This document shows, one piece after another, positions 44,408-62,334 of a DNA stretch of 64,000 nucleotides. The DNA is taken from the IMG/VR virus record IMGVR_UViG_3300036987_000310, positions 64,001-128,000 of that record. The stretch is one strand, 5' to 3'. Within the stretch, counting starts at the first letter, position 1. Every line of letters begins with the position of its first letter. The notes under the pieces are model-generated. The model had not been told where the DNA came from. It saw only the letters and a list, made by a program, of their open reading frames with translations, and did no database searches. The stretch is from a virus (lineage: Duplodnaviria > Caudoviricetes). The translations under genes and the position numbers were made by a program.

Positions 44408-44656
44408 TCAGATGTCCTCCCTTGGTAGGACAGCCAAGGTGACGTAGACGTCCGGGTGTTCGGTCGTGTCCTCGGGAGCATCAGACACCCGGACATGCCT
44501 GTTGTCGATCACCCAACAGCCCTTGATGCTCGGCAGAACAACACGGTCCCCAGGGTGCAAGGCGAGAGCCACTTGTGCATTCATCTCCGTTCTGCCGATA
44601 GTATCTCCATCCAGAAGAGCCCTTCGCAATTCAACACTCGCACGCATTGGCTTCAT
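44408..44656 (-). CDS. Hypothetical protein
   Basis: 82 aa, ATGA overlap with the deaminase gene. Confidence 0.45.
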   Translation of the reverse strand: MKPMRASVELRRALLDGDTIGRTEMNAQVALALHPGDRVVLPSIKGCWVIDNRHVRVSDAPEDTTEHPDVYVTLAVLPREDI

Positions 44657-45138
44657 GTCGACCCATTGTTTCGCATGTTGGTTTCGACCACTTCCTTGAC
44701 ACTGAAGATCTCAGGGCGGGGCTCAACCCGTCTAAAGTCTATGTCGCATTTGGAAATCAAATCCGGATCGAGAGGGATGCGGTATTGCTCATCAAACACA
44801 ATGGAGCGCACGCCAGAATTTATGAGCATCTTGAAACAGTTATAGCAAGGCGACAACGTCACATATGCCGTCGCCCCGTCAATGCAGGTTCCATGCTTCG
44901 CTGCTTGAGCCACAGCGTTAACTTCTGCGTGAATAGTTCTTATACACCCTCCGTCAGGGCCGATTTCACACCCGACGTCAGTGCAATGTGGCTGTCCGCG
45001 TATGGACCCGCCATAACCGGTCGACAAGATTGCTCTGTCGCGAACTATCACACATCCAACTTGTTTTCTGTTGCAGGTTGACCGCTCAGCGACTTCACGA
45101 GCTATCGACAGGAAATACTCGTCCCAGCTTTTTCGCAT
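44653..45138 (-). CDS. dCMP deaminase
   Basis: WDEYFLSIA..VAERSTC.RKQVGCVIV, STGYGG, HAEVNA, SPCYNC. Confidence 0.92.
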   Translation of the reverse strand: MRKSWDEYFLSIAREVAERSTCNRKQVGCVIVRDRAILSTGYGGSIRGQPHCTDVGCEIGPDGGCIRTIHAEVNAVAQAAKHGTCIDGATAYVTLSPCYNCFKMLINSGVRSIVFDEQYRIPLDPDLISKCDIDFRRVEPRPEIFSVKEVVETNMRNNGST

Positions 45139-45172
45139 GAGACGAATTACACTCCTGCAGTGTCAGCATTTG

Positions 45173-45299
45173 TGGCGGGTGAAGGAATCGAACCTTCCTG
45201 GCGTGTGGGCACAAACGGCGTCTCCCTTTCGGGAGAGAGTGGAAAATGCCGGATTGTCTTCCTTTTGGTAGAAGCGGGATCCCAGATCCCTAACCCGCC
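45173..45299 (-). ncRNA. tRNA-like RNA 1 with module inserted in variable region (anticodon arm ambiguous)
   Basis: Acceptor GGCGGGT/ACCCGCC; D hairpin GGGATC-TGG-GATCCC; T arm GAAGG-TTCGATT-CCTTC; insert GGCAT..CCACTC-TCTCCC(GAAA)GGGAGA..GTGCC-CACACG. Confidence 0.75.
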
Positions 45300-45305
45300 T
45301 AATTG

Positions 45306-45434
45306 AAAACGCTCGAGTGTCGATGCCGGTTTTGGTGCACGAGGCAGGACTTGAACCTGCAACTTCCTGTTTCGTAGACAGACGCTCTACCTTTGAGCAA
45401 CTTGCGCTTGTTGGAACCGATGATTGAGCGTTTT
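45306..45434 (-). ncRNA. Module wrapped around tRNA-Arg(ACG)
   Basis: Terminal 9-bp stem AAAACGCTC/GAGCGTTTT; CGGTT/AACCG inner stem; CCAACAAG before and ACACTC after the tRNA. Confidence 0.7.
45333..45407 (-). tRNA. tRNA-Arg(ACG)
   Basis: GCGCAAG TT GCTC AAAGGTA GAGC G TCTGT CT-ACG-AA ACAGG AAGTT GCAGG TTCAAGT CCTGC CTCGTGC A CCA. Confidence 0.9.
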
Positions 45435-45435
45435 C

Positions 45436-45572
45436 GGAGCGGGACCCGGGAGTCGAACCCGGAAACTTGTGAGCAAGATTTGCGGCTTCCTTGCGAAAGC
45501 GAGGGGGCTTGCTGGTTGAGCATTGGCTCCACTGTGGAAAAGTGGTGAGGAACCGATCCTCTGTAGTCCCGC
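45436..45572 (-). ncRNA. tRNA-Gly(TCC)-like RNA 2 with ~65-nt variable-loop module
   Basis: Acceptor GCGGGAC/GTCCCGC + U discriminator (Gly-like); anticodon arm CCACT-TTTCCAC-AGTGG; insert AGCAAG-CCCCCTC-GCTTTC(GCAA)GGAAGC..CTTGCT-CACAAG; T arm CCGGG-TTCGACT-CCCGG. Confidence 0.82.
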
Positions 45573-45580
45573 GAAAGTTT

Positions 45581-45707
45581 GGACGTTCGAGTGGCGACGC
45601 TGATTTTTGGCTTGCAAAGCGGGACTTGAACCCACTACACCCAGCTTTTAAGGCTGATGCTCTACCCAATGAGCTATTTGCTTGTTAGAGCCGCTGTTTG
45701 AACGTCC
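45581..45707 (-). ncRNA. Module wrapped around a tRNA-like core with UAA anticodon
   Basis: Terminal 8-bp stem GGACGTTC/GAACGTCC; CTAACAAGC before and CCACTC after the core. Confidence 0.72.
45608..45683 (-). tRNA. Atypical tRNA, anticodon TAA (Leu) on a short-variable-loop body with 5-bp acceptor
   Basis: AAGCAAA TA GCTC ATTGGGTA GAGC A TCAGC CT-TAA-AA GCTGG GTGTA GTGGG TTCAAGT CCCGC TTTGCAA G CCA; pairs 1 and 2 of the acceptor are A-A mismatches. Confidence 0.65.
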
Positions 45708-45844
45708 TGGTGCAGGGCGAAGGAGTCGAACCTTCTTAGCTTGTGAGCACTTCGAATGCTCCTGGTGAGGGAGCGAGTGGAAACGCTGGAGACTTTTGTC
45801 GTCGTGTCCAAATCACGATGGGTGACCGTCACCCTGTGCCCTGC
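45708..45844 (-). ncRNA. tRNA(TTG, Gln)-like RNA 3 with variable-loop module
   Basis: Acceptor GCAGGGC/GCCCTGC-A-CCA; D hairpin GGGTGA-CGG-TCACCC; anticodon arm TCGTG-ATTTGGA-CACGA; insert CCACTC-GCTCC..GGAGC..GTGCT-CACAAG. Confidence 0.82.
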
Positions 45845-45852
45845 ATATTAAC

Positions 45853-46012
45853 CGCGTCCGAGTGGCAAATCTGTTTTACGCTTTTGACGATTTTCCTGTC
45901 GTTGCCTTTACCAGTTTGGCTACTCCCCCTAGTTTTTCCGTGGTGGGGGAGGCGGGAATCGAACCCGCATTGTGCTTTCGCACTTGCTTGTTAGATCAAC
46001 CGTATGGACGCG
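45853..46012 (-). ncRNA. Circularly permuted tRNA mimic with terminal module (YrlA/Y-RNA-like topology)
   Basis: 5'-CGCGTCC..CTAACAAGC, GTGC(GAAA)GCAC, T arm GCGGG-TTCGATT-CCCGC, CTCCCCC-ACCA, 11-nt linker, GGGGGAG, D arm GCC-AAACTGGTAA-AGGC, ..CCACTC-GGACGCG-3'. Confidence 0.78.
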
Positions 46013-46014
46013 AT

Positions 46015-46143
46015 TGGCGCCGGACCTTGGATTCGAACCAAGTTGCTTGTGAGCAGGACTTGAAGCTCCCTTGCGGGGGCGAGTTGGCCAGCTGGGCTTA
46101 GATCAGCTTAAGAGGCTGGTGGGGACCATCCCCAGTGTCCGGC
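46015..46143 (-). ncRNA. tRNA-Lys(CTT)-like RNA 5 with variable-loop module
   Basis: Acceptor GCCGGAC/GTCCGGC-G-CCA; D hairpin GGGGA-TGG-TCCCC; anticodon CAGC-CTCTTAA-GCTG; insert CAACTC-GCCCCC(GCAA)GGGAGC..CTGCT-CACAAG; T arm CTTGG-TTCGAAT-CCAAG. Confidence 0.82.
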
Positions 46144-46144
46144 A

Positions 46145-46221
46145 TGGTAACGGGGGCAGGATTTGAACCTGCGACCTTGAGGTTATGGGCCTCACGAGCT
46201 ACCAGACTGCTCTACCCCGCA
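46145..46221 (-). tRNA. tRNA-Met(CAT), initiator-like
   Basis: TGCGGGG..CCCCGTT-A-CCA with 1:72 mismatch; D stem GAGC/GCTC; anticodon TGAGG-CC-CAT-AA-CCTCA (C33, only two G-C pairs at the loop-proximal end). Confidence 0.9.
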
Positions 46222-46254
46222 TCGATGACGACATGAACTTTCAAAGAACGAGAA

Positions 46255-46390
46255 TGGGGGAGGGCGAAGGAGTCGAACCTTCTATGCTTGTTAGAATCGC
46301 TTGATGCTTTCGCACGGAAAGCGAGGGGCGAATCTGGAACGCAGTTGCGTCGGATTTACCGTCCGATTGGGCGCCGTGCCCAAGCCCTCC
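46255..46390 (-). ncRNA. tRNA-Tyr(GTA)-like RNA 6 with variable-loop module
   Basis: Acceptor GGAGGGC/GCCCTCC-C-CCA; anticodon TCGGA-CGGTAAA-TCCGA; insert GATTCGC-CCCTC-GCTTTC..GAAAGC-ATCAA-GCGATTC-TAACAAGC; T arm GAAGG-TTCGACT-CCTTC. Confidence 0.82.
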
Positions 46391-46398
46391 AAAACAAA

Positions 46399-46481
46399 AC
46401 GCTCGAGGTGAGATGCTTGGATTGACCCGCGCGCTTGGCGGGTCGAGCCTTCCAGCTTGTCAGCATCTCTGGATGAACGCT
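46399..46481 (-). ncRNA. Stand-alone module RNA (no tRNA parts)
   Basis: GCGTTC/GAGCGT outer stem; AGATGCT/AGCATCT inner stem; GACAAG, CACCTC; apical hairpin GACCCGC-CAAGC-GCGGGTC. Confidence 0.6.
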
Positions 46482-46484
46482 CAC

Positions 46485-46736
46485 TCATATTTTACATTTG
46501 AGACCACTGTCTGTCAATATCTGGCAAACATCTTCAACAAATCGACTACACGGCGTCAAAGCCACGGGCCCTGACACGATTTCAACGCTGCCGTCCGAGT
46601 GAACGGTCACATCCTCTAGATAACCTGGCAGTTTTTCCCACTTTTCACATCGAAGAGCGTCTCTCAAGCTGTCAGAACACTCCCAATCGCGTATTTGACT
46701 GTTGAGTGCCAAAATGACGAAAAGCACAACTTTCAT
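46485..46736 (-). CDS. Small hypothetical protein (possible signal peptide)
   Basis: MKVVLFVILAL...; ATGA-coupled. Confidence 0.45.
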   Translation of the reverse strand: MKVVLFVILALNSQIRDWECSDSLRDALRCEKWEKLPGYLEDVTVHSDGSVEIVSGPVALTPCSRFVEDVCQILTDSGLKCKI

Positions 46737-46984
46737 GAGTCTTGAACGTCCGAAATGTCAAGCAAAATTTTGGCGTTGTCCCTGAAATACTCTATGTCAG
46801 CCATCCTGGCTTCCAGCTCCCTCAACTGCCCCTCAATGGTGTCCACTTTTGCTCTCAGGACTTCAACCTCAGTGGTGTCAAATTTCGCCTCCATGGTTTC
46901 AAGAACTGGCGCAACAGATCTTTTAAACAATTTTATGGAACTGCGCGCTTGTTTGGAAGATGTTCGCTTCAACCGTTTCATCAC
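46733..46984 (-). CDS. Small coiled-coil protein
   Basis: VEVLRAKVDTIEGQLRELEARMADIE; coupled to the ThiF gene. Confidence 0.5.
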   Translation of the reverse strand: MMKRLKRTSSKQARSSIKLFKRSVAPVLETMEAKFDTTEVEVLRAKVDTIEGQLRELEARMADIEYFRDNAKILLDISDVQDS

Positions 46985-47553
46985 ACCCTCATGGCACCAG
47001 TGGGCGTGATTTGGAACCCGTGTTTTTCCCCGGAGTTTAGGAATTTTTGGGCTGCCGTGGCTATGTACGAAGCCACGGTTGCTATGAACGGAAGAAAGTC
47101 ACCATTCTCGCATGTTGCCCCTCCGGCTCCGTCTTCATCATCGATGACGAAATTTTCGCTCCAAATGACTCGCCCAAATTGTCCCCCGGCCGCCAACGTT
47201 CCGTGCAAACATGGAACGTTGGACTTGGAGAAGTTTTGAACGATTCTTCTGGCCTCTCCGTTGTCCAAACAGTCGATGATCAAGTCAGCGCCAGCCAACA
47301 GCTGGTCGTCGTTTTCCGACGACAGCTTGTGCGGAATGGACCCGATTTTGATTGCAAACAGAAACTGCATGAGCTGTTGAAGCGCAACAGTCTTGTTCTT
47401 CCCCACGGCATTTTGCGCATGGAACTGGGATGCTACGTTCTTGCGCTCGATTCTGTCGAAATCGATGACGTTGATTGTCGCTTCGCAGTTTCGGAGAAAA
47501 AGGGCCACGTGAGACCCGAGCGCTCCTACTCCGACGATTGTCACCTTCTTCAT
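46981..47553 (-). CDS. E1-like ThiF/MoeB adenylyltransferase
   Basis: VTIVGVGALGS, IDFDRIERKNVASQ, GKNK, IIDCLDNGEAR; candidate catalytic Cys in GGATCE; no CxxC Zn motifs. Confidence 0.9.
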   Translation of the reverse strand: MKKVTIVGVGALGSHVALFLRNCEATINVIDFDRIERKNVASQFHAQNAVGKNKTVALQQLMQFLFAIKIGSIPHKLSSENDDQLLAGADLIIDCLDNGEARRIVQNFSKSNVPCLHGTLAAGGQFGRVIWSENFVIDDEDGAGGATCENGDFLPFIATVASYIATAAQKFLNSGEKHGFQITPTGAMRV

Positions 47554-47561
47554 GTCATCCG

Positions 47562-47906
47562 TTACTTTTCGAGTTTGTCCATTTCCGCAGCATTCAAGAA
47601 GTCTTCGACGTCAGAAACCCCGTATTTGTCCTGCAAGACCGAGAGAATCCCAGCGTGCCGCATCTTTGCCTGTTCGAGCCGATCGTTTGCCGTGTCTTTT
47701 GTGATGAGCCCTGATGCCAAAGCATTGAATATGATAGACTTTTCGACCGTTTCATGCGCCTCAAGCTGTTGAAGAACAGCCTGTTCCGGCGTCAGGCTTG
47801 TGTCGGACTCGAACTTCATGCTCAAGAACTCGGATTGTTTTTCTCCGTTTCTGTTGACTTCCATGATTTTTGAAATTGAGAAGCTTTTAACAACTAGGGC
47901 CATCAC
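47562..47906 (-). CDS. Hypothetical protein
   Basis: 114 aa with strong SD GGAGGAG. Confidence 0.55.
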   Translation of the reverse strand: MMALVVKSFSISKIMEVNRNGEKQSEFLSMKFESDTSLTPEQAVLQQLEAHETVEKSIIFNALASGLITKDTANDRLEQAKMRHAGILSVLQDKYGVSDVEDFLNAAEMDKLEK

Positions 47907-48030
47907 TCCTCCTGAATTCCATGCCGCCCGTTTCTTCCCGTCTCAGAAAAACGTTCTCTAGAATTACATCTAGAATGTAGCGTGGTAGATCGTCAGTTAG
48001 TGGAGTTTGCAACTATCAAGCTTTGACCAG

Positions 48031-48246
48031 TTATTCTCCATGAACGGACTCCACGATTCTTGCAGTGGCTTCAGCAGCTTGGCCGTCGCTCCACCAGCCG
48101 TGACCATCAAAGTGCATGCCGCAATGATCGCGCTTCATCACGCACTTTCCACAGCCTTCCCACGGACCACAAACCTCACACCGTTCTTTTATTGGCAAAC
48201 ATGGAGTCGGGTCTGACGGGCGGTTTATCAAGTCCATCGTGGACAT
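48031..48246 (-). CDS. Small Cys/His-rich protein with tag-like C-terminus (VESVHGE)
   Basis: CEVCG...CGKC...HCGMH. Confidence 0.5.
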   Translation of the reverse strand: MSTMDLINRPSDPTPCLPIKERCEVCGPWEGCGKCVMKRDHCGMHFDGHGWWSDGQAAEATARIVESVHGE

Positions 48247-48255
48247 GCGACATGA

Positions 48256-48531
48256 TCACAAAATGCCGAATGGTGTCTTGGGGCGGCACTGTATGAGAGC
48301 CCAAGGACGCGTTTCATTGGGCTCAAACCTGTCCACTACGAAGTCTGTGAAATCCGCGCCCGGATCGGCAGAGATTCCCGGGACAGTTCCTGTTCGAACA
48401 GCTTCAGTAACCCATCGTTTGATGTCGACGTCCGCCGCATCCCGATTCACCGTGTCAGACAAGTCTCCATTCTGACCATTCCAAGTAACATTTACGCGTG
48501 CTTCTCCGATTTGAACGATTTCGTCTGCCAT
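48256..48531 (-). CDS. Ubiquitin-like (beta-grasp) protein with C-terminal PFG-IL
   Basis: Strand-strand-helix-strand-strand pattern (RVNVTW, QNGDL, DIKRWVTEAV, FVVDRF, LIQCRPK); DNA reads CCA TTC GGC ATT TTG TGA; lies between the E1 and JAB genes. Confidence 0.7.
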   Translation of the reverse strand: MADEIVQIGEARVNVTWNGQNGDLSDTVNRDAADVDIKRWVTEAVRTGTVPGISADPGADFTDFVVDRFEPNETRPWALIQCRPKTPFGIL

Positions 48532-48545
48532 TTGCGTCTCCTAAT

Positions 48546-48881
48546 TCAGGTTCTTTTGTTCTTGAACATCACCACTACTTCTTGAGCAAATCTTTCAGAG
48601 CTGAAGTCCGACAGCACTTCGCTCAATGCACGAAGAAATGCGACAATGTTGCGTTTTTCTTCCAAATCTCGTCTGGCGCGCTCTACTTTTTCAGCCCTGG
48701 TGTCGTTCAGGGTTCGGTAGTCGAAGAAAACTTCTTTGGCGAAGTGTTCGTGCCTAAGAATCTCATTTTCGGTATCCTTGACGGAGTTTTGAAAATGATC
48801 TAGCGCTGCGTTGACTATCCACTGAAAATGATGGTCTTGAAGTTTTGCCGCGATGCTTTTCAGATTTCCGAACTTATCCAT
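48546..48881 (-). CDS. Helical hypothetical protein
   Basis: 111 aa; TAAACT-N5-ATG upstream. Confidence 0.55.
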   Translation of the reverse strand: MDKFGNLKSIAAKLQDHHFQWIVNAALDHFQNSVKDTENEILRHEHFAKEVFFDYRTLNDTRAEKVERARRDLEEKRNIVAFLRALSEVLSDFSSERFAQEVVVMFKNKRT

Positions 48882-48889
48882 GCAACAGT

Positions 48890-49282
48890 TTACACGCGGG
48901 GCGGCCGAATTTCCGACAGCTCTCGAAGCTTATTGACCCAGTCAAACCCGAGGTTTGTCTTTTCTGCCGCCCCTTTATAGTCAAGCTTTTCCGGACCAGT
49001 CCACACTATGGTTGCCGCCATGTCGCTGGTGAAAATCCACCACACCAGTCTCTTCCCTAAAGCCGCTTCGATCGCGGCGAACGTGGTCAAATCAGTGTGA
49101 GACGGTTGTGGGACTCCAGAGCCCGGGTGGGTGTGTGCGAATCCAGCGACGGCGTCGCGGTTTCCCCAGATGACGTCCCACAAGCTTCTGCTGTCTGGCA
49201 AAGCGCCAACGTTCCTGTCGTTCGGAGCATGCCAGTACATGACTTTCCCGTCGTTGTTTACGACAGCCCCCGCTTCTTTCAT
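48890..49282 (-). CDS. JAB/MPN+ metallo-isopeptidase
   Basis: KEAGAVV (N-terminal Glu), GFAHTHPGSGVPQPSHTDL = HxH-x7-S-x2-D. Confidence 0.85.
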   Translation of the reverse strand: MKEAGAVVNNDGKVMYWHAPNDRNVGALPDSRSLWDVIWGNRDAVAGFAHTHPGSGVPQPSHTDLTTFAAIEAALGKRLVWWIFTSDMAATIVWTGPEKLDYKGAAEKTNLGFDWVNKLRELSEIRPPRV

Positions 49283-49701
49283 GACATCTCCATTCGCACT
49301 TGCATCAACAACTTCCCAAGCATGTTTTTTCCTTTGCCTGTCTTGGAGTCAACCCCCCAAAATTTGTCCCCCCATGAGTTTCCTTCAACAAGCTCGACGT
49401 CGCCTGTGTCAAGAAGCTGCTGACGAAGACCAGGGTCTGAGAATTTTTCTCGCAAAAGATCCAACATGACTCTGATTTTTACGTTCTCCCAATCTTTCCT
49501 GAGAGTCGCTCCTCGTCCGAGTTTTTTAGCTTCGCCTGCCGTTTTAGCCATCCTGATCTTTGACCGTTCGACAGGGCTGAGCGTTTTTGCTGCTTGGTAT
49601 GCATGCTCCACAGTTCGAAATGAGACGCCATCGTAAAAAACTCGACTGTCGTAAAAATTTGACAAAAACGCATGCTCGTTGAAAAACTTGTCGATTTTCA
49701 T
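49279..49701 (-). CDS. NADAR (YbiA-like) hydrolase
   Basis: FLSNFY, TVEHAYQAAK, AKKLGR, DWENVKIRVM...KF, LVEGNSWGDKFWG, GKNMLGKLLMQVR. Confidence 0.92.
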   Translation of the reverse strand: MKIDKFFNEHAFLSNFYDSRVFYDGVSFRTVEHAYQAAKTLSPVERSKIRMAKTAGEAKKLGRGATLRKDWENVKIRVMLDLLREKFSDPGLRQQLLDTGDVELVEGNSWGDKFWGVDSKTGKGKNMLGKLLMQVRMEMS

Positions 49702-49889
49702 TGGCTCATGACTTCCATGACTGGATGACGACTAATGCACACCCAACAAACGCGTTGCCCATCAATATTTCCGCTCTGGACTCTTCCAGAGTGCATATGA
49801 CTTTTCGGAAGCCACCACATGCGAATCTTCTTACACCTAGGGCATCTTTTGTGCCTCGGACGCTTTCTGTTCTTCGCTCGCTTCTTCAT
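49698..49889 (-). CDS. Basic Zn-finger protein with C-terminal tag (VMEVMSQ)
   Basis: CPRC...CWVC. Confidence 0.55.
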   Translation of the reverse strand: MKKRAKNRKRPRHKRCPRCKKIRMWWLPKSHMHSGRVQSGNIDGQRVCWVCISRHPVMEVMSQ

Positions 49890-49895
49890 CTGCGC

Positions 49896-50168
49896 TTACT
49901 TATCTTCTGGTTCATTCATGGGCACATATGGCTCGTATCCTTCTCGCCTGTTGTGCTCCTGCATGGCTTCCACCCAAGAGCCTGCCTCAAATTCATATAG
50001 CAGTTCTGACTCCGGACTCATGAAGCCCTGTTCAATCATCTTTTTAGCGTTTTCCTCGGTCGTGAGCTGGACGCCGCCTTCCTCCCCGTCCAAAGCATAG
50101 ATAAAGTTGTGGCAGACGAACTTGACTAGCCCTTTGGCGTTGTGCGGCCAGTATGGGACGTCGGACAT
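49896..50168 (-). CDS. Acidic hypothetical protein
   Basis: 90-aa ORF in a coupled run. Confidence 0.5.
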   Translation of the reverse strand: MSDVPYWPHNAKGLVKFVCHNFIYALDGEEGGVQLTTEENAKKMIEQGFMSPESELLYEFEAGSWVEAMQEHNRREGYEPYVPMNEPEDK

Positions 50169-50234
50169 TGCTTTAGCTTTCTTTACATGTCGACATGTTC
50201 ATTTCGCCGACGCTACAAACATCGTTAAGTTGGT

Positions 50235-50540
50235 TCATGACGACTGCACCTCGTCGACTACAATTAGATTCATGGCGTCTTTAACCGACACCTCGACAAG
50301 AGCTTTCCAGATTGTTGCATTAATCACCACGCGTGTTTTATGCTCTTCGCACCGAAACACGGTTAGCGTGCCTCCGGGGCGAAGAAAAGCACGCGTTGCT
50401 GGTTTTCCGCACTTAACGCCAGCGCGCGATCCGCTTTTTTTGTGCGGAAAATGGCCACAAACCGGCAATTTCACCGCCCTATGACTTTTACGACCTGTCA
50501 CTCGACTTCCTCGAATGCTCCTAAAGCGTTCCTTTTCCAT
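50235..50540 (-). CDS. Cys/His protein with C-terminal tag (VDEVQSS)
   Basis: VCGH...KCGKPA...RCEEH. Confidence 0.5.
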   Translation of the reverse strand: MEKERFRSIRGSRVTGRKSHRAVKLPVCGHFPHKKSGSRAGVKCGKPATRAFLRPGGTLTVFRCEEHKTRVVINATIWKALVEVSVKDAMNLIVVDEVQSS

Positions 50541-50725
50541 TCGCGGCCTAAATCTTTAGATACGATTCTCACTATATCTTTGTGGTCGTGTTCTATATCC
50601 GAAAGCCAAACATCAACCTGGTATTCGGAATCGACGCGAACGCTTCCGGCGTGGGTGGGGCCGCCCGGCCCGTGCTTTTCGCCTGGCCCGGCCGGGGTGT
50701 CGTCATGGAGCTCAAGTTCGATCAT
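50498..50725 (-). CDS. Small acidic hypothetical protein
   Basis: 75-aa ORF. Confidence 0.4.
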   Translation of the reverse strand: MIELELHDDTPAGPGEKHGPGGPTHAGSVRVDSEYQVDVWLSDIEHDHKDIVRIVSKDLGREWKRNALGAFEEVE

Positions 50726-50918
50726 TGGATTTCGCTTTCAACCAACTTTCAGCTTCGTCGCCGATTCCTTGTTTTCTCGCCCATTCTTTTAAACTTTGAT
50801 CGGTTCCAGACTTCTTCCAACGTCGAACCATGCTGCGCCGCGCCTTTTTCCCGATGCCCTTATACCCTTCATTCATTGCGCCCTCACACGGGTGGTTGCC
50901 AGCAAAAGTGCTGGCCGA

Positions 50919-51167
50919 TCATGACCTCGAAGAGTGTGGACCGTGAACTGCGGAGTTCACGACTTCACCTCCGCTGCTGAATGGCGTCGAGTTATACCTG
51001 ACAACGCCGTTTGCATCTGAGAATTTGTGAACGGTGAACGAGCTCGTGTTTTCCAGAGCTTCTTTCACCTTGTCCACTGTGGACCCGATTTCGCCGGATA
51101 TCTCTTCAAGAGTCCCAGCGCCGTGGAAACAAAAATGTTTGCGCAGTTTAATTTCCAAGTCTTTCAT
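50919..51167 (-). CDS. Small HTH-like protein
   Basis: GTLEEISGEIGSTVDKVKEALE resembles an HTH. Confidence 0.45.
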   Translation of the reverse strand: MKDLEIKLRKHFCFHGAGTLEEISGEIGSTVDKVKEALENTSSFTVHKFSDANGVVRYNSTPFSSGGEVVNSAVHGPHSSRS

Positions 51168-51168
51168 T

Positions 51169-51471
51169 TCAACAGTCCTTTGGAAGCCTGTTTAAAATCT
51201 CATCCAGAGAGCGGTTTAGCTCTTGGACCCTGTCTTCCAAGGTCTCGTTCAAAAGATGTTGCTCAATCGCCCCAGCCACAGCTGGCTTTTCACATATTTT
51301 TTCAAATCTTTCAAAGTCTGCAATAATGTTTTTGAAAAGATTTGAAACTGCAGTGTTTCGGGCTTTCCCTTGCAACTTTTTCAGACCTTCAAATTCGGAT
51401 CGATACTGACTAGAATTTTTCCAAGTTATGCTTTCGTTGACGTCTTTAATCCACATGGCGATACACCACAA
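51169..51471 (-). CDS. Coiled-coil hypothetical protein
   Basis: 100 aa; LEDRVQELNRSLDEIL. Confidence 0.45.
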   Translation of the reverse strand: MWCIAMWIKDVNESITWKNSSQYRSEFEGLKKLQGKARNTAVSNLFKNIIADFERFEKICEKPAVAGAIEQHLLNETLEDRVQELNRSLDEILNRLPKDC

Positions 51472-52387
51472 GCTTTCCGAGCTTCTCAGCTTCTCGAATC
51501 ACAGCCGGCAAAGACTCTAGCGTGAAGTACGTGTCCCCTCGCTCGTTAGTGTCATGATCTGTTAAGCAAATGCCGGCATCGACTATTTGCAAAGTCATGG
51601 CATCGCAGGTGCACTCAAATCGACGCCGATCCAAGCGAAACTTCACTACCATTTCAGCTCGGTGAATCGCCCGCCTATGATCAAGGTATATAGCACCACC
51701 AACGGCCAGAGCGGCTCTTGCCGCCTCTCCGAAATCGTGCTGGGCCATTTGGCGCCTTCCAACCCCATCCCCGAGTTTTTCGATGAGCTGCAATCGGCGT
51801 TCTTCCAAACGTCGACGCTCTTCTTCTTCCAAACGCCTACGCTCTGCCTCAACCCGCCTACGCTCTGCCTCAACCCGCTGCCACGTTTCCATTCGAAACG
51901 CTGCGTCTAAAGCAGGAGCCACGCCCGGAACGTCATCGACTGACAACTTCTCGTCCAGGTATGCTTGGAGCACGTCGTCCTCGGGTCCGAGGGGCATCTC
52001 CTGACACTTGTACACCAGAGGCCCGCCCTCATGGGTTCGACCTGACGAAATGCGAACGAAGCGGTCAAGGCCTGGCTCTATGAGCCAGACGCGCTCCGAG
52101 TGACTAGTTATTTTGGCCGGGTCGGAATCGACTCTCGCGTCATCTGCCACAAGCCGGTCTCCAACCAGATACCCGCAAACAAGATATTTCAGAAGATCCG
52201 GAACCGGATCTGTTTGCGCAAACAGCTTAGCTTTCCTTCCAGAAATCGAAAAAATGTTCCACCCGTGCTCTTCCGGAAGCTTCCCGTCCAGGGACCAAGC
52301 TCGAGGCCCTGATCGCAGAGACCTACCTCCAATCCAAGGGAGTGTTATGGTTTCATCTCCTGACTGAAGAAGGTCGCGCCAGCCCAT
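51446..52387 (-). CDS. Putative E2 (UBC-like) domain protein with N-terminal domain and charged coiled-coil linker
   Basis: C-terminal strands then LQIVDAGICLT (cf. E2 active site GxICL) then helix FTLESLPAVIREA; ERR-rich linker with a 21-bp tandem duplication at 51834-51875. Confidence 0.5.
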   Translation of the reverse strand: MGWRDLLQSGDETITLPWIGGRSLRSGPRAWSLDGKLPEEHGWNIFSISGRKAKLFAQTDPVPDLLKYLVCGYLVGDRLVADDARVDSDPAKITSHSERVWLIEPGLDRFVRISSGRTHEGGPLVYKCQEMPLGPEDDVLQAYLDEKLSVDDVPGVAPALDAAFRMETWQRVEAERRRVEAERRRLEEEERRRLEERRLQLIEKLGDGVGRRQMAQHDFGEAARAALAVGGAIYLDHRRAIHRAEMVVKFRLDRRRFECTCDAMTLQIVDAGICLTDHDTNERGDTYFTLESLPAVIREAEKLGKLVVYRHVD

Positions 52388-52422
52388 GTTGTTGGTTACA
52401 TCAACAACATAGCGATTTACGG

Positions 52423-52902
52423 CTATGAGTTCATTATGTCCGGGACAAGCTTTTCTCGTTCAATTAACCCCTCGCATCTGTTTGCTGGATCGGGAAACAG
52501 CGGAGTACACCCGAGCCCTGTGTACTCATGGAAGCAAACCATGACTTTCGGCAATGCGGAGTACGTAACTTTCAAACCGTTTCCACCGTTTGCTTTTAAG
52601 TTTGGATGAGTGCACTGAGTCCCTTCGCGATTCATGCAGTTTCCGCACAAAAGCATGAATTTCCCGGGGCCGCCGCGCCCCCACGGGATTTCTCTGTACA
52701 ATCTCTCATGATCGTTTATGACTTTCTCACATGCCTTGCTTCTGCAGGTCACGAGAATCTTTTCGGGGTCGATGCTGTCATCTTCTCTGCATTCCCACCA
52801 CATAGTGAACTCGCAAATGTCATCTTTTTCAAATCCGCACAGCTGACATCGTTTAAAAACGCTTAGCGGAAGCGCGCCATCGGACAGACTTTCCATCACC
52901 AC
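52423..52902 (-). CDS. Cys-rich protein with C-terminal tag (VPDIMNS)
   Basis: CQLCG, CRSKAC, LCGNC, CTH. Confidence 0.6.
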   Translation of the reverse strand: MVMESLSDGALPLSVFKRCQLCGFEKDDICEFTMWWECREDDSIDPEKILVTCRSKACEKVINDHERLYREIPWGRGGPGKFMLLCGNCMNREGTQCTHPNLKANGGNGLKVTYSALPKVMVCFHEYTGLGCTPLFPDPANRCEGLIEREKLVPDIMNS

Positions 52903-52948
52903 TCCTTTTCACATATCCGTCGAGCAATGACATTGGCGAACCTTCGGG

Positions 52949-53401
52949 TCATTTGTGGCAACAAAAACCTTTATCGTCGCCATAGTGCCCACAATGCCGC
53001 AAAGTTGTGCACACTACCCACACCTGACGAACAACCTGATACTTCTTGTTCGTCACATCGATCAAACACGGAACTTCGTCAGCCGTTAAGTTACCGCGGC
53101 AGTCCACATTCGCTCCGTAGATATGCCCTTCGTTGCCGCTGGCCATCCACAGCACTCGGTGCGCGTAATCGTAAGCATTGTCGACGCTCCAATACATGCA
53201 CACGGGATCGCCAGGAGCCCATCGGGTCATTCTATCGAGGCGCTCACCTTGACTGTTTAGACCGACTCCGCACGACATCGGGTCGACAATCGTGGACACG
53301 GCGTCCATCAGTTGGTCTTGGTTTTCTCCAAACCCGAACAAAATCAAGACGGATGCCCAAAACATCACGCTCGCCCCCGATTTTCTTCTGATTCTAACCA
53401 T
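52949..53401 (-). CDS. Exported/membrane Cys-rich hypothetical protein
   Basis: N-terminal hydrophobic segment VMFWASVLILFGF; 150 aa. Confidence 0.4.
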   Translation of the reverse strand: MVRIRRKSGASVMFWASVLILFGFGENQDQLMDAVSTIVDPMSCGVGLNSQGERLDRMTRWAPGDPVCMYWSVDNAYDYAHRVLWMASGNEGHIYGANVDCRGNLTADEVPCLIDVTNKKYQVVRQVWVVCTTLRHCGHYGDDKGFCCHK

Positions 53402-54330: not shown

Positions 54331-54334
54331 GGCT

Positions 54335-54667
54335 TCACAACCTGTGACCGAATGTTTTTTCCGTCATTAAATTTGTTACCAGCGCAGCATTGCAGTCTTC
54401 GGGCGTTCCAGAGTTTTCAAGGTCCCCGCGTTCCGGGGTTTTGCATACGTGGTTGCCGGTGCGACTGCAGATGGTCCACGTTTCGCTACCGCATACTGAG
54501 CACTGCCACAACTTCGTGTCGTTATGCAAAACTTTGACGAAACGCCAATCGTGTTTTGTTTTGATTTCTTCGTAAGAAATGGGAACGACGACCTCTTGAG
54601 CCTCTCCGTCCTGTTCAAAGTTCAGGAGAGCATCATATCTGTTCAAGAGGTCGTCGTGTTTGGTCAT
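54335..54667 (-). CDS. Zn-ribbon protein
   Basis: WQCSVCG...ICSRTGNHVC...DCNAALVTNLMTE; ATGA overlap with the vWA gene stop. Confidence 0.55.
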   Translation of the reverse strand: MTKHDDLLNRYDALLNFEQDGEAQEVVVPISYEEIKTKHDWRFVKVLHNDTKLWQCSVCGSETWTICSRTGNHVCKTPERGDLENSGTPEDCNAALVTNLMTEKTFGHRL

Positions 54668-56550
54668 GCGGCCCAAGTGGGTTTGCAGAGAAGATCTTGC
54701 TTCAATATGGTATCAACGAGCGTGACGCGCGGAACCGCGACAGCCCGAGCCGTCGCGCCGACTGGAGTTGCTGCGACGAGCGCACGAATCGTACGAGGAA
54801 TCGCGTACGGATCTGCGAATGTTGCTTCGTCAATCATGAAGCATGGAATCCCGAGTCGGGCCGCGGTGTCGCGAACTGCGGACCCATACCCTCCTAAGTT
54901 GACGACTCCGTACATCATGCCTCCTCCAACCTTCACAAAGCCGAAAGCCATGGGGCGAAGTTCGGACGTGTTGACGTCATTCTCAAACGACGACGCTTGT
55001 TCATCTCCAACAAAGATGAACAAGCTGTCTTCGTCGTCGCCAGGCTTGTGGGCCTTCAAGGCGCGGATCCCGGCTCCATAGTCGGTTCCGCCTCCAGCGC
55101 GAATGCCCTTGAAGGCGTTCTCCACTCCAGCTGCAGAGGGGTGGCGGATCTGAAGCTCGCGCCCCTGCGTGTTGAAAATGGACACGTGCACTTTGTCCGG
55201 CGGGAACCCCTGAAGGAATTTTGCGACGTGAGATTTGGCAGCCTCAATCGCATTTTCCATCGACCCAGAGACGTCCACCATGAAGTACACGCGCATGCCC
55301 TTCATAGTTTCTTCGACCGCCTTTTGCAGAGCCCCGTCGGCTGCTTCTTGCAGCTTTTCCTGAGTCTCCTTAGACTTGACGCGGTTGGCGATGTTGGCCG
55401 CCCGCATGTCTTCAGCGTTTTTGACAGCTTTGTTCCACCTGTCTTTGACGTCTTGGACCTCTAGCAGCCCAAGCTCCTCGAGAGTCGGCGTGTAGATGAT
55501 CAAGTCCTTGTCGGACAGAGACTTGGCTTCAATTGCTGCGGCCATGACGGCGCGCGTGACCCCGACCTCTTTCGGAAGAAGTCCGACGACCCGCTTGAAA
55601 TTCGGCTTTTCACGAACGATCTTTTCGCAGATCTGTTCTTCCGTCATTCCTTCCCAAGTTTCGGCTGCAGCCATTTCCTGACCGATTGCGAGCTGGCGCC
55701 TGCCGTCTTTTGCCTGCGCCTGCTTCCAGCGCAGAATCTCAAAGAATTTCGTCGTTTCAGGCTTATATCCGACGCAACGCGAAAGCTCCATGACAGTGGA
55801 TCGGAAGCCTGCTTTCACGAGGCCTTCGAGAAGCTTCGTGTTCTGCTCTCGATGTCTCAGCCACTTCTCCACGGCCTTGTCCCATCGGCCGTAAAATGGC
55901 CGACGAGCTGACCTCCCAAATCCAAGCTCGCGATTGACAGCCGCCACCCCTGGAAGGGAAAGCAGATCGTGGACGCGCAAGAGAAGCTTCGGATTGAAGT
56001 CCTTTCCGTCCTTGCGAGAAAGAAGAAGCATGGCCTCGCCAACGTCACGATAGTCTTCATCGTAAAATGCGACTTTTCCGCCGTCGACAACCGAGTCCCC
56101 CTTGCGGGACTGGCACAGCATGAACGCAGCCAGAACAACTTTCAAGTCGCGATGCTCCTGACCGAAAGCATACGACGCCCACCGAGCTGCGAATTCGTTG
56201 TCGAGCTTCCAGACTTCGGCGACTTGCGTGTACATCCAAACTGCCACTTCCGGAAACAGGCCGGCCGGCCTATACTCCCCAACGATGTTCGCGCCTTCTT
56301 TCACTTTCCCATCATCTTGAAGAACGCCTAGACGAGTGCGCACAGACTTCTTTCCCTGCTTGGAAAGCTTGTACACAATTTTTTGCTTCGGATCGCCTTC
56401 TTCTTTGTGGGTGACAGGTTCCCATCTGACGCCGACGTTGAAACGGTTATCGGCGACTACGATGCCAGGGCGGTTGTGGACCGCGTGGTCCGTGTAGCCG
56501 AGAAGCGTTTGAATAATTCTCTCTGCCGGTCCTAGATTTTCTTTGTCCAT
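54664..56550 (-). CDS. Ro60/TROVE-like protein: helical N-terminal region + C-terminal vWA domain
   Basis: MIDAS VDVSGSM...GGTDY...VGDE; about 400-aa basic helical N-terminal region as in the TROVE+vWA architecture; lies between rtcB and the Y-like RNA array. The vWA call is firm; TROVE is inferred. Confidence 0.65.
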   Translation of the reverse strand: MDKENLGPAERIIQTLLGYTDHAVHNRPGIVVADNRFNVGVRWEPVTHKEEGDPKQKIVYKLSKQGKKSVRTRLGVLQDDGKVKEGANIVGEYRPAGLFPEVAVWMYTQVAEVWKLDNEFAARWASYAFGQEHRDLKVVLAAFMLCQSRKGDSVVDGGKVAFYDEDYRDVGEAMLLLSRKDGKDFNPKLLLRVHDLLSLPGVAAVNRELGFGRSARRPFYGRWDKAVEKWLRHREQNTKLLEGLVKAGFRSTVMELSRCVGYKPETTKFFEILRWKQAQAKDGRRQLAIGQEMAAAETWEGMTEEQICEKIVREKPNFKRVVGLLPKEVGVTRAVMAAAIEAKSLSDKDLIIYTPTLEELGLLEVQDVKDRWNKAVKNAEDMRAANIANRVKSKETQEKLQEAADGALQKAVEETMKGMRVYFMVDVSGSMENAIEAAKSHVAKFLQGFPPDKVHVSIFNTQGRELQIRHPSAAGVENAFKGIRAGGGTDYGAGIRALKAHKPGDDEDSLFIFVGDEQASSFENDVNTSELRPMAFGFVKVGGGMMYGVVNLGGYGSAVRDTAARLGIPCFMIDEATFADPYAIPRTIRALVAATPVGATARAVAVPRVTLVDTILKQDLLCKPTWAA

Positions 56551-59406: not shown

Positions 59407-60816
59407 TCAGTCGGATCCCTTTATGCTGGCCAAGGGGTAGAGCCGCCGCTCGACGCGCGCCACTCCGGCCTTTTGCAACACCGCGAGCACTGCGTCGAGG
59501 CTCTTGTACACGTGGGCGCATTCGTCCAACGGCACGTGCTTGGTGTTGCCGACAATGCCTTCCACTGCCACGGAGCCAAACTGGCGCTTGACTTGGCGCA
59601 TCTCGTCGTCTATGCGCAGTTGCTTGTGCTCGAACTTGCGCTTGGCCGCGCCCCGAGCCAAAATGCGCCCCGATCCGTGGTTGACCGAGCATGCCCAGGC
59701 ATGCGCGCCGTCCAGAGGCGTCAGCACCGCTGCGCCTTCGAACATGCTGCCGGGAACGATGATTGGGTGCCCCACAGCCGCCCATCTCAGCTGGTTCGCG
59801 ATGTCCGGATGGCCCGCCGGCATGGCGCGCGTCGCGCCCTTCCGGTGCACTAGACCGCGCTTTGTCGTCCCGTCTGGCAGCACCAGCGTCTCCTCCTGGA
59901 TTAGATTGTGCGAGATTTCGTAGTAGACTTCGGCATCAACTCCAAACTGCTCCTGGAACGCGCGGCGCACGGAGGCGGCCATGGCATGGCGGTTGGCAAT
60001 CGCGTAATTGGCTGCCGAGTTGTGATGCGCCCAGTATTGCTTGCCCGTTGGCTCTTCAATGGATAGCCACGCTTCGCCGCGGCGTTTTGACGACCAGCCT
60101 CGGACCCTGGCTGCTTCGTAGAAGAAGTGCTCTGCGGTCTGGTATCCGTAGCCGCGCGAGCCTGAGTGGATCATGACCCACAGCGAGCCGTCGGCCTCGT
60201 CGCCTTGCAGTTCGATGAAGTGGTTTCCGCCGCCGAGCGATCCGAGCTGAGCCGCGGCCTTGCTCCAGGCACGCTCGATCAGCTTGAAGTTGGTGCCGTC
60301 CGCCACGGGGAGCTTCACTCGCTCGCACGAGTTCGGCAGCACGTCCAAGGGCTCTCCGCCGTTCTGCATGATTTCGAGCAGGGTTTCCTCGCTGAATTCG
60401 GGCATGAGCTTCGGCCTGTTCATTCCGATCCCGACGGCGACGCGCTTCTCGACTTCCGAAATCCAGCGCTCGCGCGGGTACCGATTCTTGAAGTGCCCGG
60501 CAGTCAGACCATCCACCCGCATCAGCAGCATACCGCAGCTGATGTCGTACCCGCTTGCTGCCATCACGAGCGTGCCGTCGGTGACGAGCACGCATCCAAC
60601 AGGAACCGAGTATCCTGAGTGCGAGTCGGGCATGAGGTATGCGCCGGTCACGCCTTCGTACGAGGCGGCGTACATCAGCTGATTCCACACCTCCTCTTCG
60701 GAGGCCGCATACAGCTCGTCCGACAAGAACGCGTGGCCGTCCACCTTCATTGTCTTGGTTTTCGCCAAAACGTAATGACCGTCGTCGAGACGTTGTGCTG
60801 CATATTTGAGCGACAT
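59407..60816 (-). CDS. rtcB: RNA ligase RtcB
   Basis: MPDSHSGY..PVG, GYDISCGM, GSLGGGNHFIE, HSGSRGYG, HNLI, HRKGAT, PGSM, HGSGR, LDECAHVYK. Confidence 0.96.
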   Translation of the reverse strand: MSLKYAAQRLDDGHYVLAKTKTMKVDGHAFLSDELYAASEEEVWNQLMYAASYEGVTGAYLMPDSHSGYSVPVGCVLVTDGTLVMAASGYDISCGMLLMRVDGLTAGHFKNRYPRERWISEVEKRVAVGIGMNRPKLMPEFSEETLLEIMQNGGEPLDVLPNSCERVKLPVADGTNFKLIERAWSKAAAQLGSLGGGNHFIELQGDEADGSLWVMIHSGSRGYGYQTAEHFFYEAARVRGWSSKRRGEAWLSIEEPTGKQYWAHHNSAANYAIANRHAMAASVRRAFQEQFGVDAEVYYEISHNLIQEETLVLPDGTTKRGLVHRKGATRAMPAGHPDIANQLRWAAVGHPIIVPGSMFEGAAVLTPLDGAHAWACSVNHGSGRILARGAAKRKFEHKQLRIDDEMRQVKRQFGSVAVEGIVGNTKHVPLDECAHVYKSLDAVLAVLQKAGVARVERRLYPLASIKGSD

Positions 60817-60918
60817 GTTATTTTCTTTCAAGAGCTCGTTCAAGTAGCTGTCGGATCAGAGTTGGTCAATTACACCTCGTAAAAGTATGAAACTCACACG
60901 AACGATGTAAACTTCGGC

Positions 60919-62330: not shown

Positions 62331-62334
62331 GTAG

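Follow-up and report, generated by a model that had tools for sequence, protein, structure and literature searches.

The minus strand between 45170 and 46481 of the analysed window (a 64,000-nucleotide stretch of a 377-kb jumbo phage genome) encodes nine RNAs that lie back to back and share one two-helix module. These RNAs are probably, at a likelihood we put near 0.58, Y-RNA-like partners of a divergent Ro60 encoded by the same phage, with the module as a putative docking handle and the tRNA-like parts as displayed cargo; the binding of protein to module and the function of the resulting particle are what we infer. Ro60/Y-RNA particles have been described from animals, from some bacteria and from a handful of phages, and the number of Y RNAs is usually between one and four. 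The system described here looks like an undescribed multi-copy Ro60/Y-RNA particle rather than a set of broken tRNAs or introns.

All nine elements announced by an earlier note on this DNA are present (Table 1), as seen from their C-rich loop strands (CACCTC, CCCCTC, CAACTC, four copies of CCACTC, CCCCTC and ACACTC) and from the ACAAG word found in eight of them. Within the 64-kb window, CYNACAAGY occurs 17 times against 7.8 expected, and eight of the 17 fall within 1.06 kb on a single strand. Five elements consist of a full cloverleaf with a 60-70-nt insert in the variable region. As previously described, three of the inserts are GNRA-capped (GCAA, GCAA and GAAA) and intact cloverleaves carry the anticodons GTA, CTT, TTG and TCC, the fifth (element 9) reading CAA with C33. 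In unmodified form none of these five giant genes is recognised by ARAGORN or Rfam, which call three plain tRNA cores only in the array: Met-CAT, a 'Leu'-TAA with a 5-bp acceptor and Arg-ACG. The TTGACA-17-TAAAAT preceding the array is a consensus match only; it is the sole promoter-like site in 44900-46800, where shuffled sequence also gives a mean of 1.0.

Table 1. Features of the locus in window coordinates, in the direction of the minus strand
Feature	Position	Strand	Remarks
RtcB RNA ligase	59407..60843	-	276 bits; 13 kb from array
628-aa divergent Ro60-like protein	54664..56550	-	N-terminal beta domain, TROVE-like helical ring, VWA domain (by predicted fold); candidate module partner
313-aa protein, unknown	51446-52387	-	between Ro60-like gene and array
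JAB	48890-49282	-	Pfam and PADLOC
91-aa protein	48256-48531	-	between Ro60-like gene and array
ThiF/E1-like	46981-47553	-	Pfam and PADLOC
Promoter-like site, sigma-70-like TTGACA-17-TAAAAT	46489..46517	-	immediately upstream of first RNA; 11/12 consensus matches
Element 1, open-ended (permuted) module, cargo a small hairpin only	46398..46481	-	alignment, MFE fold
Element 2, giant tRNA-like, Tyr-type loop CGGUAAA (G33)	46255..46390	-	51.2 bits; variable-region module 46286-46336
Plain tRNA-Met (CAT) within array, without module	46145..46221	-	ARAGORN; Rfam tRNA 58 bits
Element 3, giant tRNA-like, Lys-type loop CUCUUAA	46015..46143	-	52.4 bits; module 46045-46094, GCAA cap
Element 4, open-ended module around circularly permuted tRNA mimic	45853..46012	-	X 6/7, Y 7/7 pairs
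Element 5, giant tRNA-like, Gln-type loop AUUUGGA	45708..45844	-	42.4 bits; module 45739-45788
Element 6, open-ended module around tRNA-like core 45608-45683	45582..45706	-	anticodon UAA, 5 acceptor pairs only
Element 7, giant tRNA-like, Gly-type loop UUUCCAC	45435..45572	-	48.7 bits; module 45465-45514, GCAA cap
Element 8, open-ended module around tRNA-Arg (ACG) core 45333-45407	45308..45432	-	10-bp Y helix
Element 9, giant tRNA-like, loop ACCAAAA (CAA, C33)	45170..45299	-	39.5 bits; module 45201-45251

The module has two helices, X and Y, separated by an internal loop that ends in CUC, and an unpaired word, N-ACA(A/C)GC, at the base of X. Helix X is closed by conserved A-U and G-C pairs, the internal loop is asymmetric with the invariant CUC at the end of its 5' strand, and helix Y opens with a G-C pair. 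The unpaired word reads ACAAGCAA or ACACGCAA, and the letters conserved across module alignments are CAG, CUCG and CU-N-ACA(A/C)GC, often with AA next. The conserved word is longer than the (C/T)(C/A)ACAAG first proposed. ACAAG stands in eight of the nine elements, and the GAAA-capped module of element 9 has CACACGC in its place (ACACGC where the others have ACAAGC). The helices differ in sequence between copies and still pair, as had been noticed: over 45 distinct copies, 88.7% of cells are paired, whereas shuffling brings this to 64.7% and sliding the partners to 31-50%. Changes on both sides are found at all 13 of 13 base pairs. The module is genuine, and its structure is under selection.

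Since helix sequences diverge between copies while pairing is kept, a recent DNA repeat or mobile element is ruled out. The stretch GCUCU-AACAA, which we take to resemble rrn boxA, is not a boxA-like antitermination site either, because the strand is base-paired with covariation and that reading leaves the CUC loop and helix Y unaccounted for. Rfam scans, both at the gathering threshold and at E<=10, gave no family, ribozyme or intron matching the module; a literature search found no description of it, and DNA similarity against 50,697 deposited phages returned the array's plain tRNA-Met as the sole match. The suggestion that the module lies outside known tRNA families therefore holds with respect to Rfam, and the proposed search of related phage Ro60 loci recovered the same module with covariation and same-strand linkage.

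Two circular permutations of the module exist, in which Y is either loop-closed or open at the RNA ends. Of the four topologies proposed earlier, what stands is four kinds of cargo, whereas the module itself has only these two arrangements. The loop-closed permutation is the variable-region hairpin of five complete, non-canonical tRNA-like genes of ~130-138 nt, and the open-ended one forms a stem that surrounds a permuted tRNA mimic in one element, a tRNA-like core in two others and a plain hairpin in a fourth. The last of these, element 1, had been taken to stand alone; it indeed carries no tRNA, only a small hairpin, but it also has a helix Y (AGCGUUC/GAGCGUU, with G-U pairs) in addition to X (AGAUGCU/AGCAUCU). 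Its unpaired strands are GACAAGC after X3' and CACCUC before Y5', and its MFE fold recovers both helices (z -3.6). The MFE fold of element 5 shows the acceptor, D arm, anticodon arm, a small hairpin, X, Y and the T arm (z -3.8), and in element 7 the proposed structure is the MFE fold (z -4.4). In element 4 the cargo runs T arm, loop-closed acceptor, D arm and anticodon-like hairpin, and Rfam also reports tmRNA-like T arm/acceptor matches; the core of element 6 matches only positions 3-68 of the Rfam tRNA model.

Relatives extend this range and reveal an autonomous module, found within a variable region, as a replacement for the anticodon arm (L008 3487, L009 6490, L017 1690 and L031 4283), as the closure of a permuted mimic or alone with a 17-nt cargo. 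Counterparts of element 4, with the permuted mimic in an open-ended module, occur in L007, L009, L015, L018, L020, L022, L028 and L031. The linkers joining module to tRNA body vary from 7 to 15 nt on the 5' side and from 0 to 6 nt on the 3' side.

The candidate partner is the 628-aa protein, which by its modelled structure is Ro60-like in fold only, with a helical-repeat ring followed by a VWA domain. The models are of moderate confidence (pLDDT 73-76). Foldseek's top matches are Ro60/TROVE, and a protein-atlas feature search leads to TROVE/vWA_Ro60 clusters. In the whole-protein structure search the list was filled by VWA domains and uninformative for the ring, which was assessed by folding residues 95-416 separately. 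Compared with 48,161 chains, this helical domain alone ranks 1yvp_A, 9l5y_B and 2nvo_A first to third, all of them Ro60, at Z 10.1-10.6 over 238-260 aligned residues, the next match being at Z 6.5; the VWA domain reaches Z 14. More than 1,700 homologs are found in metagenomes.

Sequence models give a different view of this protein, and we count it as a counter-point that profile searches with TROVE, DUF2828 and PDB sequences fail to identify it. Pfam assigns VWA_2 only, TROVE (PF05731) does not match even at E<=10, and neither TROVE nor DUF2828 matches anywhere in the genome. Profile searches against PDB sequences gave no Ro60 match, and across PDB, Pfam TROVE, DUF2828, PHROGs and PADLOC only the VWA domain was recognised.

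Module and Ro60-like gene travel together. A motif scan blind to protein content, covering 2.9 million viral contigs, placed the module in 20 genuine huge-phage contigs, 19 of which encode the Ro60-like protein, always on the same strand and at 1.5-16 kb from the module. The exception, contig G011 (68% complete), has three modules and no detected Ro60-like, TROVE or DUF2828 gene. Starting instead from the protein, 68 loci yielded 65 covariance-model matches, all 65 on the strand of the Ro60-like gene, and a looser script counted over 130 modules there and 8 on the opposite strand. The array lies either right after the cassette (Ro60-like/313-aa/JAB/91-aa/ThiF) or 0.2-2 kb upstream of the Ro60-like gene. 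This linkage persists in lineages with only 50-59% identity, but it does not represent many independent events, since the linked genomes all come from a single phage clade in which gene order is conserved. Overall the module recurs across dozens of huge-phage contigs. Among 185,579 prokaryote genomes the motif matches were nearly all chance; covariance-model re-scanning of 80 of at least 120 loci found good copies in a single case, a 16.8-kb contig binned as Methylobacter, so the module appears, from its sequence distribution, to be phage-borne. All 20 of 20 public runs containing the locus are DNA metagenomes.

The 313-aa/JAB/91-aa/ThiF order is retained in 59-63 of the 68 related loci, and in several of them the RNA array begins 100-200 nt past ThiF. 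As the array is equally near ThiF/JAB and the Ro60-like gene, the partner could instead be a different protein of the cassette or one from the host. RtcB is only loosely linked and may lie outside the system: it is found in 9 of the 20 module-bearing contigs and missing from 11, including a complete 398-kb genome. Thus RtcB is ruled out as an obligatory partner, and its use in the earlier note as an argument for a protein-binding handle is weak. The other half of that argument, a Y-RNA-like handle proposed from the nearby Ro60-like gene, is supported as far as computation reaches, on account of the Ro60 fold, the YrlA-like element 4, the co-occurrence in 19 of 20 contigs and the shared strand.

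The closest known RNAs are the YrlA-type Y RNAs of bacteria and phages, partners of Ro60/Rsr (RF02553; Chen et al. 2014, PMC4201824; bioRxiv 10.1101/312249). Like them, the array RNAs are small, adjoin a Ro60-fold gene, share the modular layout of Y RNAs (PMC4201824) and join an internal-loop stem to a tRNA-like domain, and RtcB is encoded nearby, as in the Salmonella rsr-yrlBA-rtcBA operon. Under a broad definition of Y RNAs, as RNAs encoded next to a Ro60 gene, those of 19 of the 20 contigs qualify, the gene being Ro60-like by fold only. Element 4 has the order T arm, loop-closed acceptor and D arm seen in YrlA, whereas the other eight elements are not permuted mimics, the majority of members having the full cloverleaf in its unpermuted form, anticodon arm included. 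The array handle also exits the variable region, while the YrlA stem replaces the anticodon stem; there are nine copies per genome here, and Pfam TROVE misses the protein. The Rfam YrlA model scores at best 25 bits against a 69-bit gathering threshold, on the tRNA-like part of element 4 only (16-17 bits on the others), and in eight related loci it gave no match at E<=0.01.

In YrlA, contact with Ro60 is made by the motif GNCGAAN0-1G, which lies on the terminal stem's 5' strand (PMC4201824). The array handle, with its CUC loop and ACA(A/C)GC, lacks this contact motif of the YrlA and phiLo Yrl RNAs, a further counter-point; GNCGAAN0-1G and CGAA are absent from the module alignments, CGAA occurring only by chance in hairpin caps.

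Thermus phage phiLo offers a second comparison, encoding Ro60 with Yrl1 and Yrl2 (PMC12135203; PDB 9KOP, 9L5Y). As in the system predicted here, a phage-encoded Ro60 has partner RNAs of its own beside its gene, and 9L5Y_B is among the top three structural matches of the helical domain (Z 10.4). The phiLo RNAs, however, are two in number rather than an array and have a stem-bulge-stem with CGAA and no tRNA cloverleaf, and the protein here has in addition a beta domain at its N terminus and is encoded within a JAB/ThiF cassette.

What the tRNA-like bodies do bears on the alternatives. U33 is absent from 12-14 of 32 family anticodon loops (~40%), the Tyr-type loop CGGUAAA is conserved although its stem covaries, the D arm of the giant genes is odd (4 nt, then a 5-6-bp stem) and their 3' ends are N-C-Y-R rather than strict CCA. 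For these reasons the bodies look, by sequence, like mimics and not decoders. The features of a canonical elongator tRNA (model match, U33 with purine 37, 4-bp D stem with A14, CCA) are not found together in them. They share with class II tRNAs and tRNA-Sec an extra helix between the anticodon and T arms, and with tRNA-Sec a D stem extended with a short loop; but the arm is 60-70 nt instead of about 13-20 nt, is the same for any anticodon, including types that are class I elsewhere, and is also found detached from any tRNA.

It is nonetheless conceivable, if unlikely, that the giant RNAs are working tRNAs whose big variable arm acts through a phage or host factor other than the Ro60-like protein, as an element of identity, protection or recruitment, for example to evade or repair host attack by tRNA nucleases or to serve the ThiF/JAB/small-protein cassette. 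Complete cloverleaves with 7-bp acceptor stems and, in many, an encoded CCA would suit such a role, as would the array's start just past the ThiF gene in many relatives; in other systems, ThiF-family enzymes work on tRNAs together with small sulfur-carrier proteins. The anticodons include frequent targets of anticodon nucleases, which often attack tRNAs such as Tyr, Lys, Gln, Arg and Glu (see also PMC11555353). This proposal leaves the open-ended, cargo-poor and anticodon-less members unexplained, and it fits poorly with the loops lacking U33, with 3' ends that are often CUA, CCG or CUG and with the invariant unpaired nucleotides of the module, identical across anticodons.

Somewhat less probable is a processing or intron cassette, in which an endonuclease would cut before C-AG and after ACAA, at the base of helix X, free the tRNA cores from open-ended forms and excise the giant-tRNA inserts, with RtcB ligating the halves. 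Archaeal bulge-helix-bulge sites function in this manner, both for tRNA introns and for rRNA processing stems. Several observations favour it. The tRNA-Arg core of element 8 and several enclosed cores in relatives have the G of ACAAG as their nucleotide +1, a counter-point to the handle reading in that this placement of ACA(A/C)G fits a processing signal too. With the insert excised in silico, ARAGORN calls a tRNA in 28 of 32 family members (tRNA-Tyr for element 2). A plain Tyr tRNA is missing from the genome, CCA/UCA is retained in the enclosed cores ahead of an A-rich trailer, and RtcB lies 13 kb away.

Against it, RtcB is missing where the module is present, as noted above. The variable linkers mean that cuts measured from the module would yield no defined variable loop, and excision makes no sense for members in which the module replaces the anticodon arm or which have hardly any cargo. 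Loops without U33 and odd D arms speak against decoding tRNAs as products, and plain copies of Gly-TCC, Gln-TTG, Lys-CTT, Arg-ACG, Leu-TAA and Leu-CAA are present elsewhere in the genome. The insert borders comprise an 8-bp helix plus unpaired C and N-ACAAGC rather than 4 bp between two 3-nt bulges; no group I core or 3-4-3 bulge-helix-bulge was found there, nor any Rfam intron at E<=10. No enzyme for introns of this kind is known to us from phages or bacteria. The excisable intron religated by RtcB, raised in the earlier note as an alternative, is therefore disfavoured. Its broader version, slightly more doubtful again, makes the module the recognition cassette of an endonuclease that cuts at the base of helix X and defines a new phage tRNA intron and processing system, one signal both splicing giant pre-tRNAs (sealed by RtcB or a host ligase) and freeing tRNAs from leader-trailer stems; if true, bacterial viruses would have their own counterpart of archaeal bulge-helix-bulge processing.

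A small self-cleaving ribozyme, with the nearby ligase acting on 2',3'-cyclic phosphate ends, is very improbable: small ribozymes typically occur in permuted forms and multi-copy arrays, as does the module within a single putative transcript, and unpaired CUC and ACA(A/C)GC are conserved, but 44900-46800 has no Rfam ribozyme match at E<=10, the fold is limited to two helices and an internal loop, without any covarying pseudoknot or junction candidate, and RtcB linkage is weak.

Under the preferred reading, that of Y-RNA-like partners of a phage Ro60, the array would encode a battery of RNAs whose module docks onto the phage's own divergent Ro60-like ring protein, leaving the variable part (a whole cloverleaf, a circularly permuted mimic, a tRNA core or a hairpin) displayed as cargo. 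By analogy with Ro60/Y-RNA particles, this cargo may tether the ring to, or gate it towards, tRNA-recognising proteins.

A large clade of huge phages carries a Ro60-fold protein missed by sequence models, together with partner-like RNAs, up to nine or more, in which one handle is set on complete cloverleaves with many different anticodon loops. The JAB, ThiF and small-protein genes between the ring gene and the RNAs form an unexpected link. If the handle docks the ring, the array would amount to a natural display of tRNA mimics on a protein scaffold and would account for 'broken' or unannotated tRNA-like genes of phage genomes. It would also open an experimental route to the role of the Ro60 particle during infection, which may be, for example, the decoying or tethering of tRNA-directed nucleases, repair enzymes or modification enzymes.

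The virus record is 376,674 bp long with direct terminal repeats (51% G+C; 39 tRNA genes by ARAGORN), and the window corresponds to its bases 64001-128000. Ten RNA genes fill one stretch of the minus strand nearly without gaps, preceded by a promoter-like site (TTGACA-17-TAAAAT). Nine of them, elements 1-9, share a module, and the sole module-free tRNA is Met-CAT. The acceptor stem of this tRNA starts with a U-U mismatch; mismatching at 1:72 is an initiator-like feature. ARAGORN and Rfam recognise only three ordinary tRNA cores in the array: Met-CAT, 'Leu'-TAA (with five acceptor pairs) and Arg-ACG. A dCMP deaminase gene begins 32 nt past the last array RNA and may be co-transcribed with the array, because a scan of 44900-46800 detected nothing terminator-like on the minus strand.

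Features of the window, the wider genome and related module-bearing loci (L numbers)
Feature	Sequence	Coordinates	Strand	Remarks
RNA array	window	45170-46481	minus	ten RNA genes
Element 1	window		minus	cargo: plain hairpin
Element 4	window		minus	cargo: permuted tRNA mimic
Element 6	window		minus	cargo: tRNA-like core, anticodon UAA
Element 8	window		minus	cargo: tRNA-Arg core
tRNA Met-CAT	window	46145-46221	minus	in array
dCMP deaminase gene	window	44653-45138		
Conserved gene string	window	46981-56550	minus	Ro60-like, 313-aa unknown, JAB (130 aa), 91-aa, ThiF/E1-like (190 aa); order kept in 59-63 of 68 loci
Ro60-like gene	window	54664-56550	minus	628 aa
NADAR-domain gene	window	49279-49701		window-specific
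tRNA-Ser CGA	window	61418-61502	minus	ARAGORN call, below Rfam tRNA gathering score in whole-window scan
tRNA-Ser TGA	window	62334-62417	minus	as for CGA
Suppressor-type tRNA	G000:C1, outside window	336141-336231		ARAGORN; 91 nt, anticodon TTA (reads UAA)
Giant tRNA-likes	L015; L022	4777; 2894		8-nt loops containing UUA/UUAG
tmRNA	L009, huge-phage contig	3560-3916		full; Rfam 135 bits; ~2.4 kb from module array
Module array	L031, DATBQC010000689.1	4100-4660		16.8-kb contig of a Methylobacter sp. metagenome bin

In its hairpin form, the module starts with a C followed by helix X, whose 7-8 pairs open with A-U (rarely G-C) and then G-C. The 5' loop strand, N-N-C-U-C, leads into helix Y (5-7 pairs, the first G-C), and a loop caps this helix (GNRA in three window copies). 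The 3' loop strand is variable (4-9 nt, first base usually A), and the return strand of X ends in CU, then one free base, then ACA(A/C)GC. This form occurs in the five giant tRNA-like genes (elements 2, 3, 5, 7 and 9), where it lies between the anticodon and T stems of a complete cloverleaf, with a small extra hairpin 5' of it in elements 2, 5 and 7. In elements 1, 4, 6 and 8 the module is circularly permuted, with Y open at the RNA ends and a cargo enclosed (open form). All motifs described in the earlier note were found: the N-N-N-CUC loop strand nine times and the ACAAG word eight times, with ACACG in the ninth element. Its four topologies hold as four kinds of cargo; the module itself has two. 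Thermodynamic folds match the model for elements 1, 5, 6, 7 and 8 (z-scores -1.5 to -4.4). Hairpin-form and open-form elements alternate, 1-3 nt apart, and directly behind the CCA end of each giant tRNA-like comes the 5' strand of the Y helix that follows. The related locus L028 repeats the order Tyr-type, permuted mimic, giant, Arg core.

The motif CYNACAAGY has 17 matches in the 64-kb window, 8 of them clustered on a single strand within 1.06 kb. Scanning 2.9 million viral contigs for the exact motif gave 24 loci, with genuine copies in 21, from 20 large contigs (73-416 kb). A covariance model made from 31 module copies found 54 matches (45 distinct) in the scan loci and the window. Paired cells amount to 88.7% in these matches, versus 64.7% with shuffled partners (none of 500 shuffles came up to the observed figure) and 31-50% with slid partners, and both partners change in each of the 13 modelled pairs. 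The 24 distinct open-form copies pair at 158/168 (X) and 163/168 (Y) positions, values inflated by the choice of copies for pairing, against partner-exchange means of 111 and 119. No Rfam family covers the module, and literature searches found no description of it. In prokaryote genomes the exact-motif scan gave chance-level matches; among 80 of the hit loci re-scanned with the covariance model, a single short contig, from a Methylobacter bin (L031), stood out. Its array comprises one Tyr-type giant tRNA, one anticodon-less form and two modules in open form, with many tRNA genes around, and the contig is either a phage fragment placed in the wrong bin or a pointer to the host.

The contigs were found protein-blind; 19 of the 20 encode a homolog of the 628-aa protein, the exception being incomplete, and the gene lies 1.5-16 kb from the array in 19/19. 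Conversely, a protein-first survey of 68 loci with 10-kb flanks yielded 65 covariance-model matches in 30 loci, all on the gene's strand. A looser script that included the open form placed gene-strand modules in ~47 of the 68 (>130 matches versus 8 on the opposite strand). Modules sit either directly 3' of the conserved gene string or 0.2-2 kb upstream of the Ro60-like gene, the latter notably in lineages only 50-59% identical. Window-specific genes, such as one with a NADAR domain, interrupt the string.

By sequence, the 628-aa product matches VWA models only, and neither Pfam TROVE nor DUF2828 has a match anywhere in the genome. Its close homologs number >1,700; most are 60-70% identical, and contigs of 200-660 kb carry many of them. 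The best Foldseek matches of its AlphaFold model (pLDDT 76) are Ro60/TROVE structures (E 2e-9 to 1e-5 over 450-550 columns), with low TM-scores. Since whole-model TM-scores were low, residues 95-416 were folded alone and aligned without prefilter to all 48,161 PDB representatives. Ranks 1-3 are the three Ro60 representatives (Xenopus, phage phiLo and Deinococcus; Z 10.1-10.6), and the next match has Z 6.5. A protein-language-model search also placed TROVE/vWA_Ro60 clusters among the nearest named neighbours. On these predicted structures we accept the protein as 'Ro60-like' at the fold level. The true partner of the RNAs could also come from the adjoining ThiF, JAB or small-protein genes, instead of or together with this ring protein.

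Family-wide, the acceptor stem of the tRNA-like bodies is 7 bp long, the T arm contains GGUUCGA, the anticodon arm carries a loop of 7 nt, and there is an unusual D arm (four bases, a 5-6-bp stem and a short loop containing GG). With the insert deleted in silico, ARAGORN calls a tRNA in 28 of 32 members (Tyr, Gln, Gly, Lys, Arg, Phe, Val, Ser, Asn, Met, Glu and Leu). Plain tRNAs elsewhere in the genome include Gly-TCC, Gln-TTG, Lys-CTT, Arg-ACG, Leu-TAA and Leu-CAA, and the genome's tRNA calls include no plain Tyr tRNA. U33, near-universal in tRNA anticodon loops, is missing from 12-14 of the 32 loops. The Tyr-type loop CGGUAAA is found in the window and four other contigs, and CGGUAAC in a fifth, while the stem beneath covaries. 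Position 37 is often a non-purine, and the 3' ends are N-C-Y-R rather than strict CCA. Some relatives carry the module in place of the whole anticodon arm; others have no more cargo than an anticodon-like hairpin, or 17 nt. Because of these loops, position 37, the D arm, the 3' ends and the anticodon-less or cargo-poor relatives, the bodies fit mimics better than decoders. The five giant genes possibly encode functional tRNAs whose arm protects or recruits, but this would leave the other module forms unexplained. An intron or processing cassette would account for the G of ACAAG coinciding with +1 of the enclosed tRNA cores. This reading is hard to square with the variable linkers, with members that are anticodon-less or cargo-poor, with the non-canonical loops and with the weak linkage to RtcB, which was detected in just 9 of the 20 contigs and is absent from one complete 398-kb genome. 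A ribozyme finds no support beyond the permutations.

The array RNAs combine a terminal or hairpin stem, a conserved internal loop and a joined variable, mostly tRNA-like part with an adjoining Ro60-fold gene. Y RNAs, especially YrlA (PMC4201824), likewise have a stem with a conserved internal loop, a variable module and a Ro60 gene beside them. There are differences: the YrlA model gives 25 bits where its threshold is 69, placing the RNAs outside that family, and the published Ro60-contact motif is absent. Moreover, the YrlA handle replaces the anticodon stem, whereas the handle here branches off the tRNA body at the variable region. Given this Y-RNA layout and the documented cases of phage Ro60 proteins that have partner RNAs of their own (PMC12135203), the module is probably the handle by which the RNAs of a divergent Ro60/Y-RNA system dock, and the tRNA-like parts would be the cargo on display. 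As for what the particle may do, the conserved loops lacking U33 would suit uncleavable decoys.
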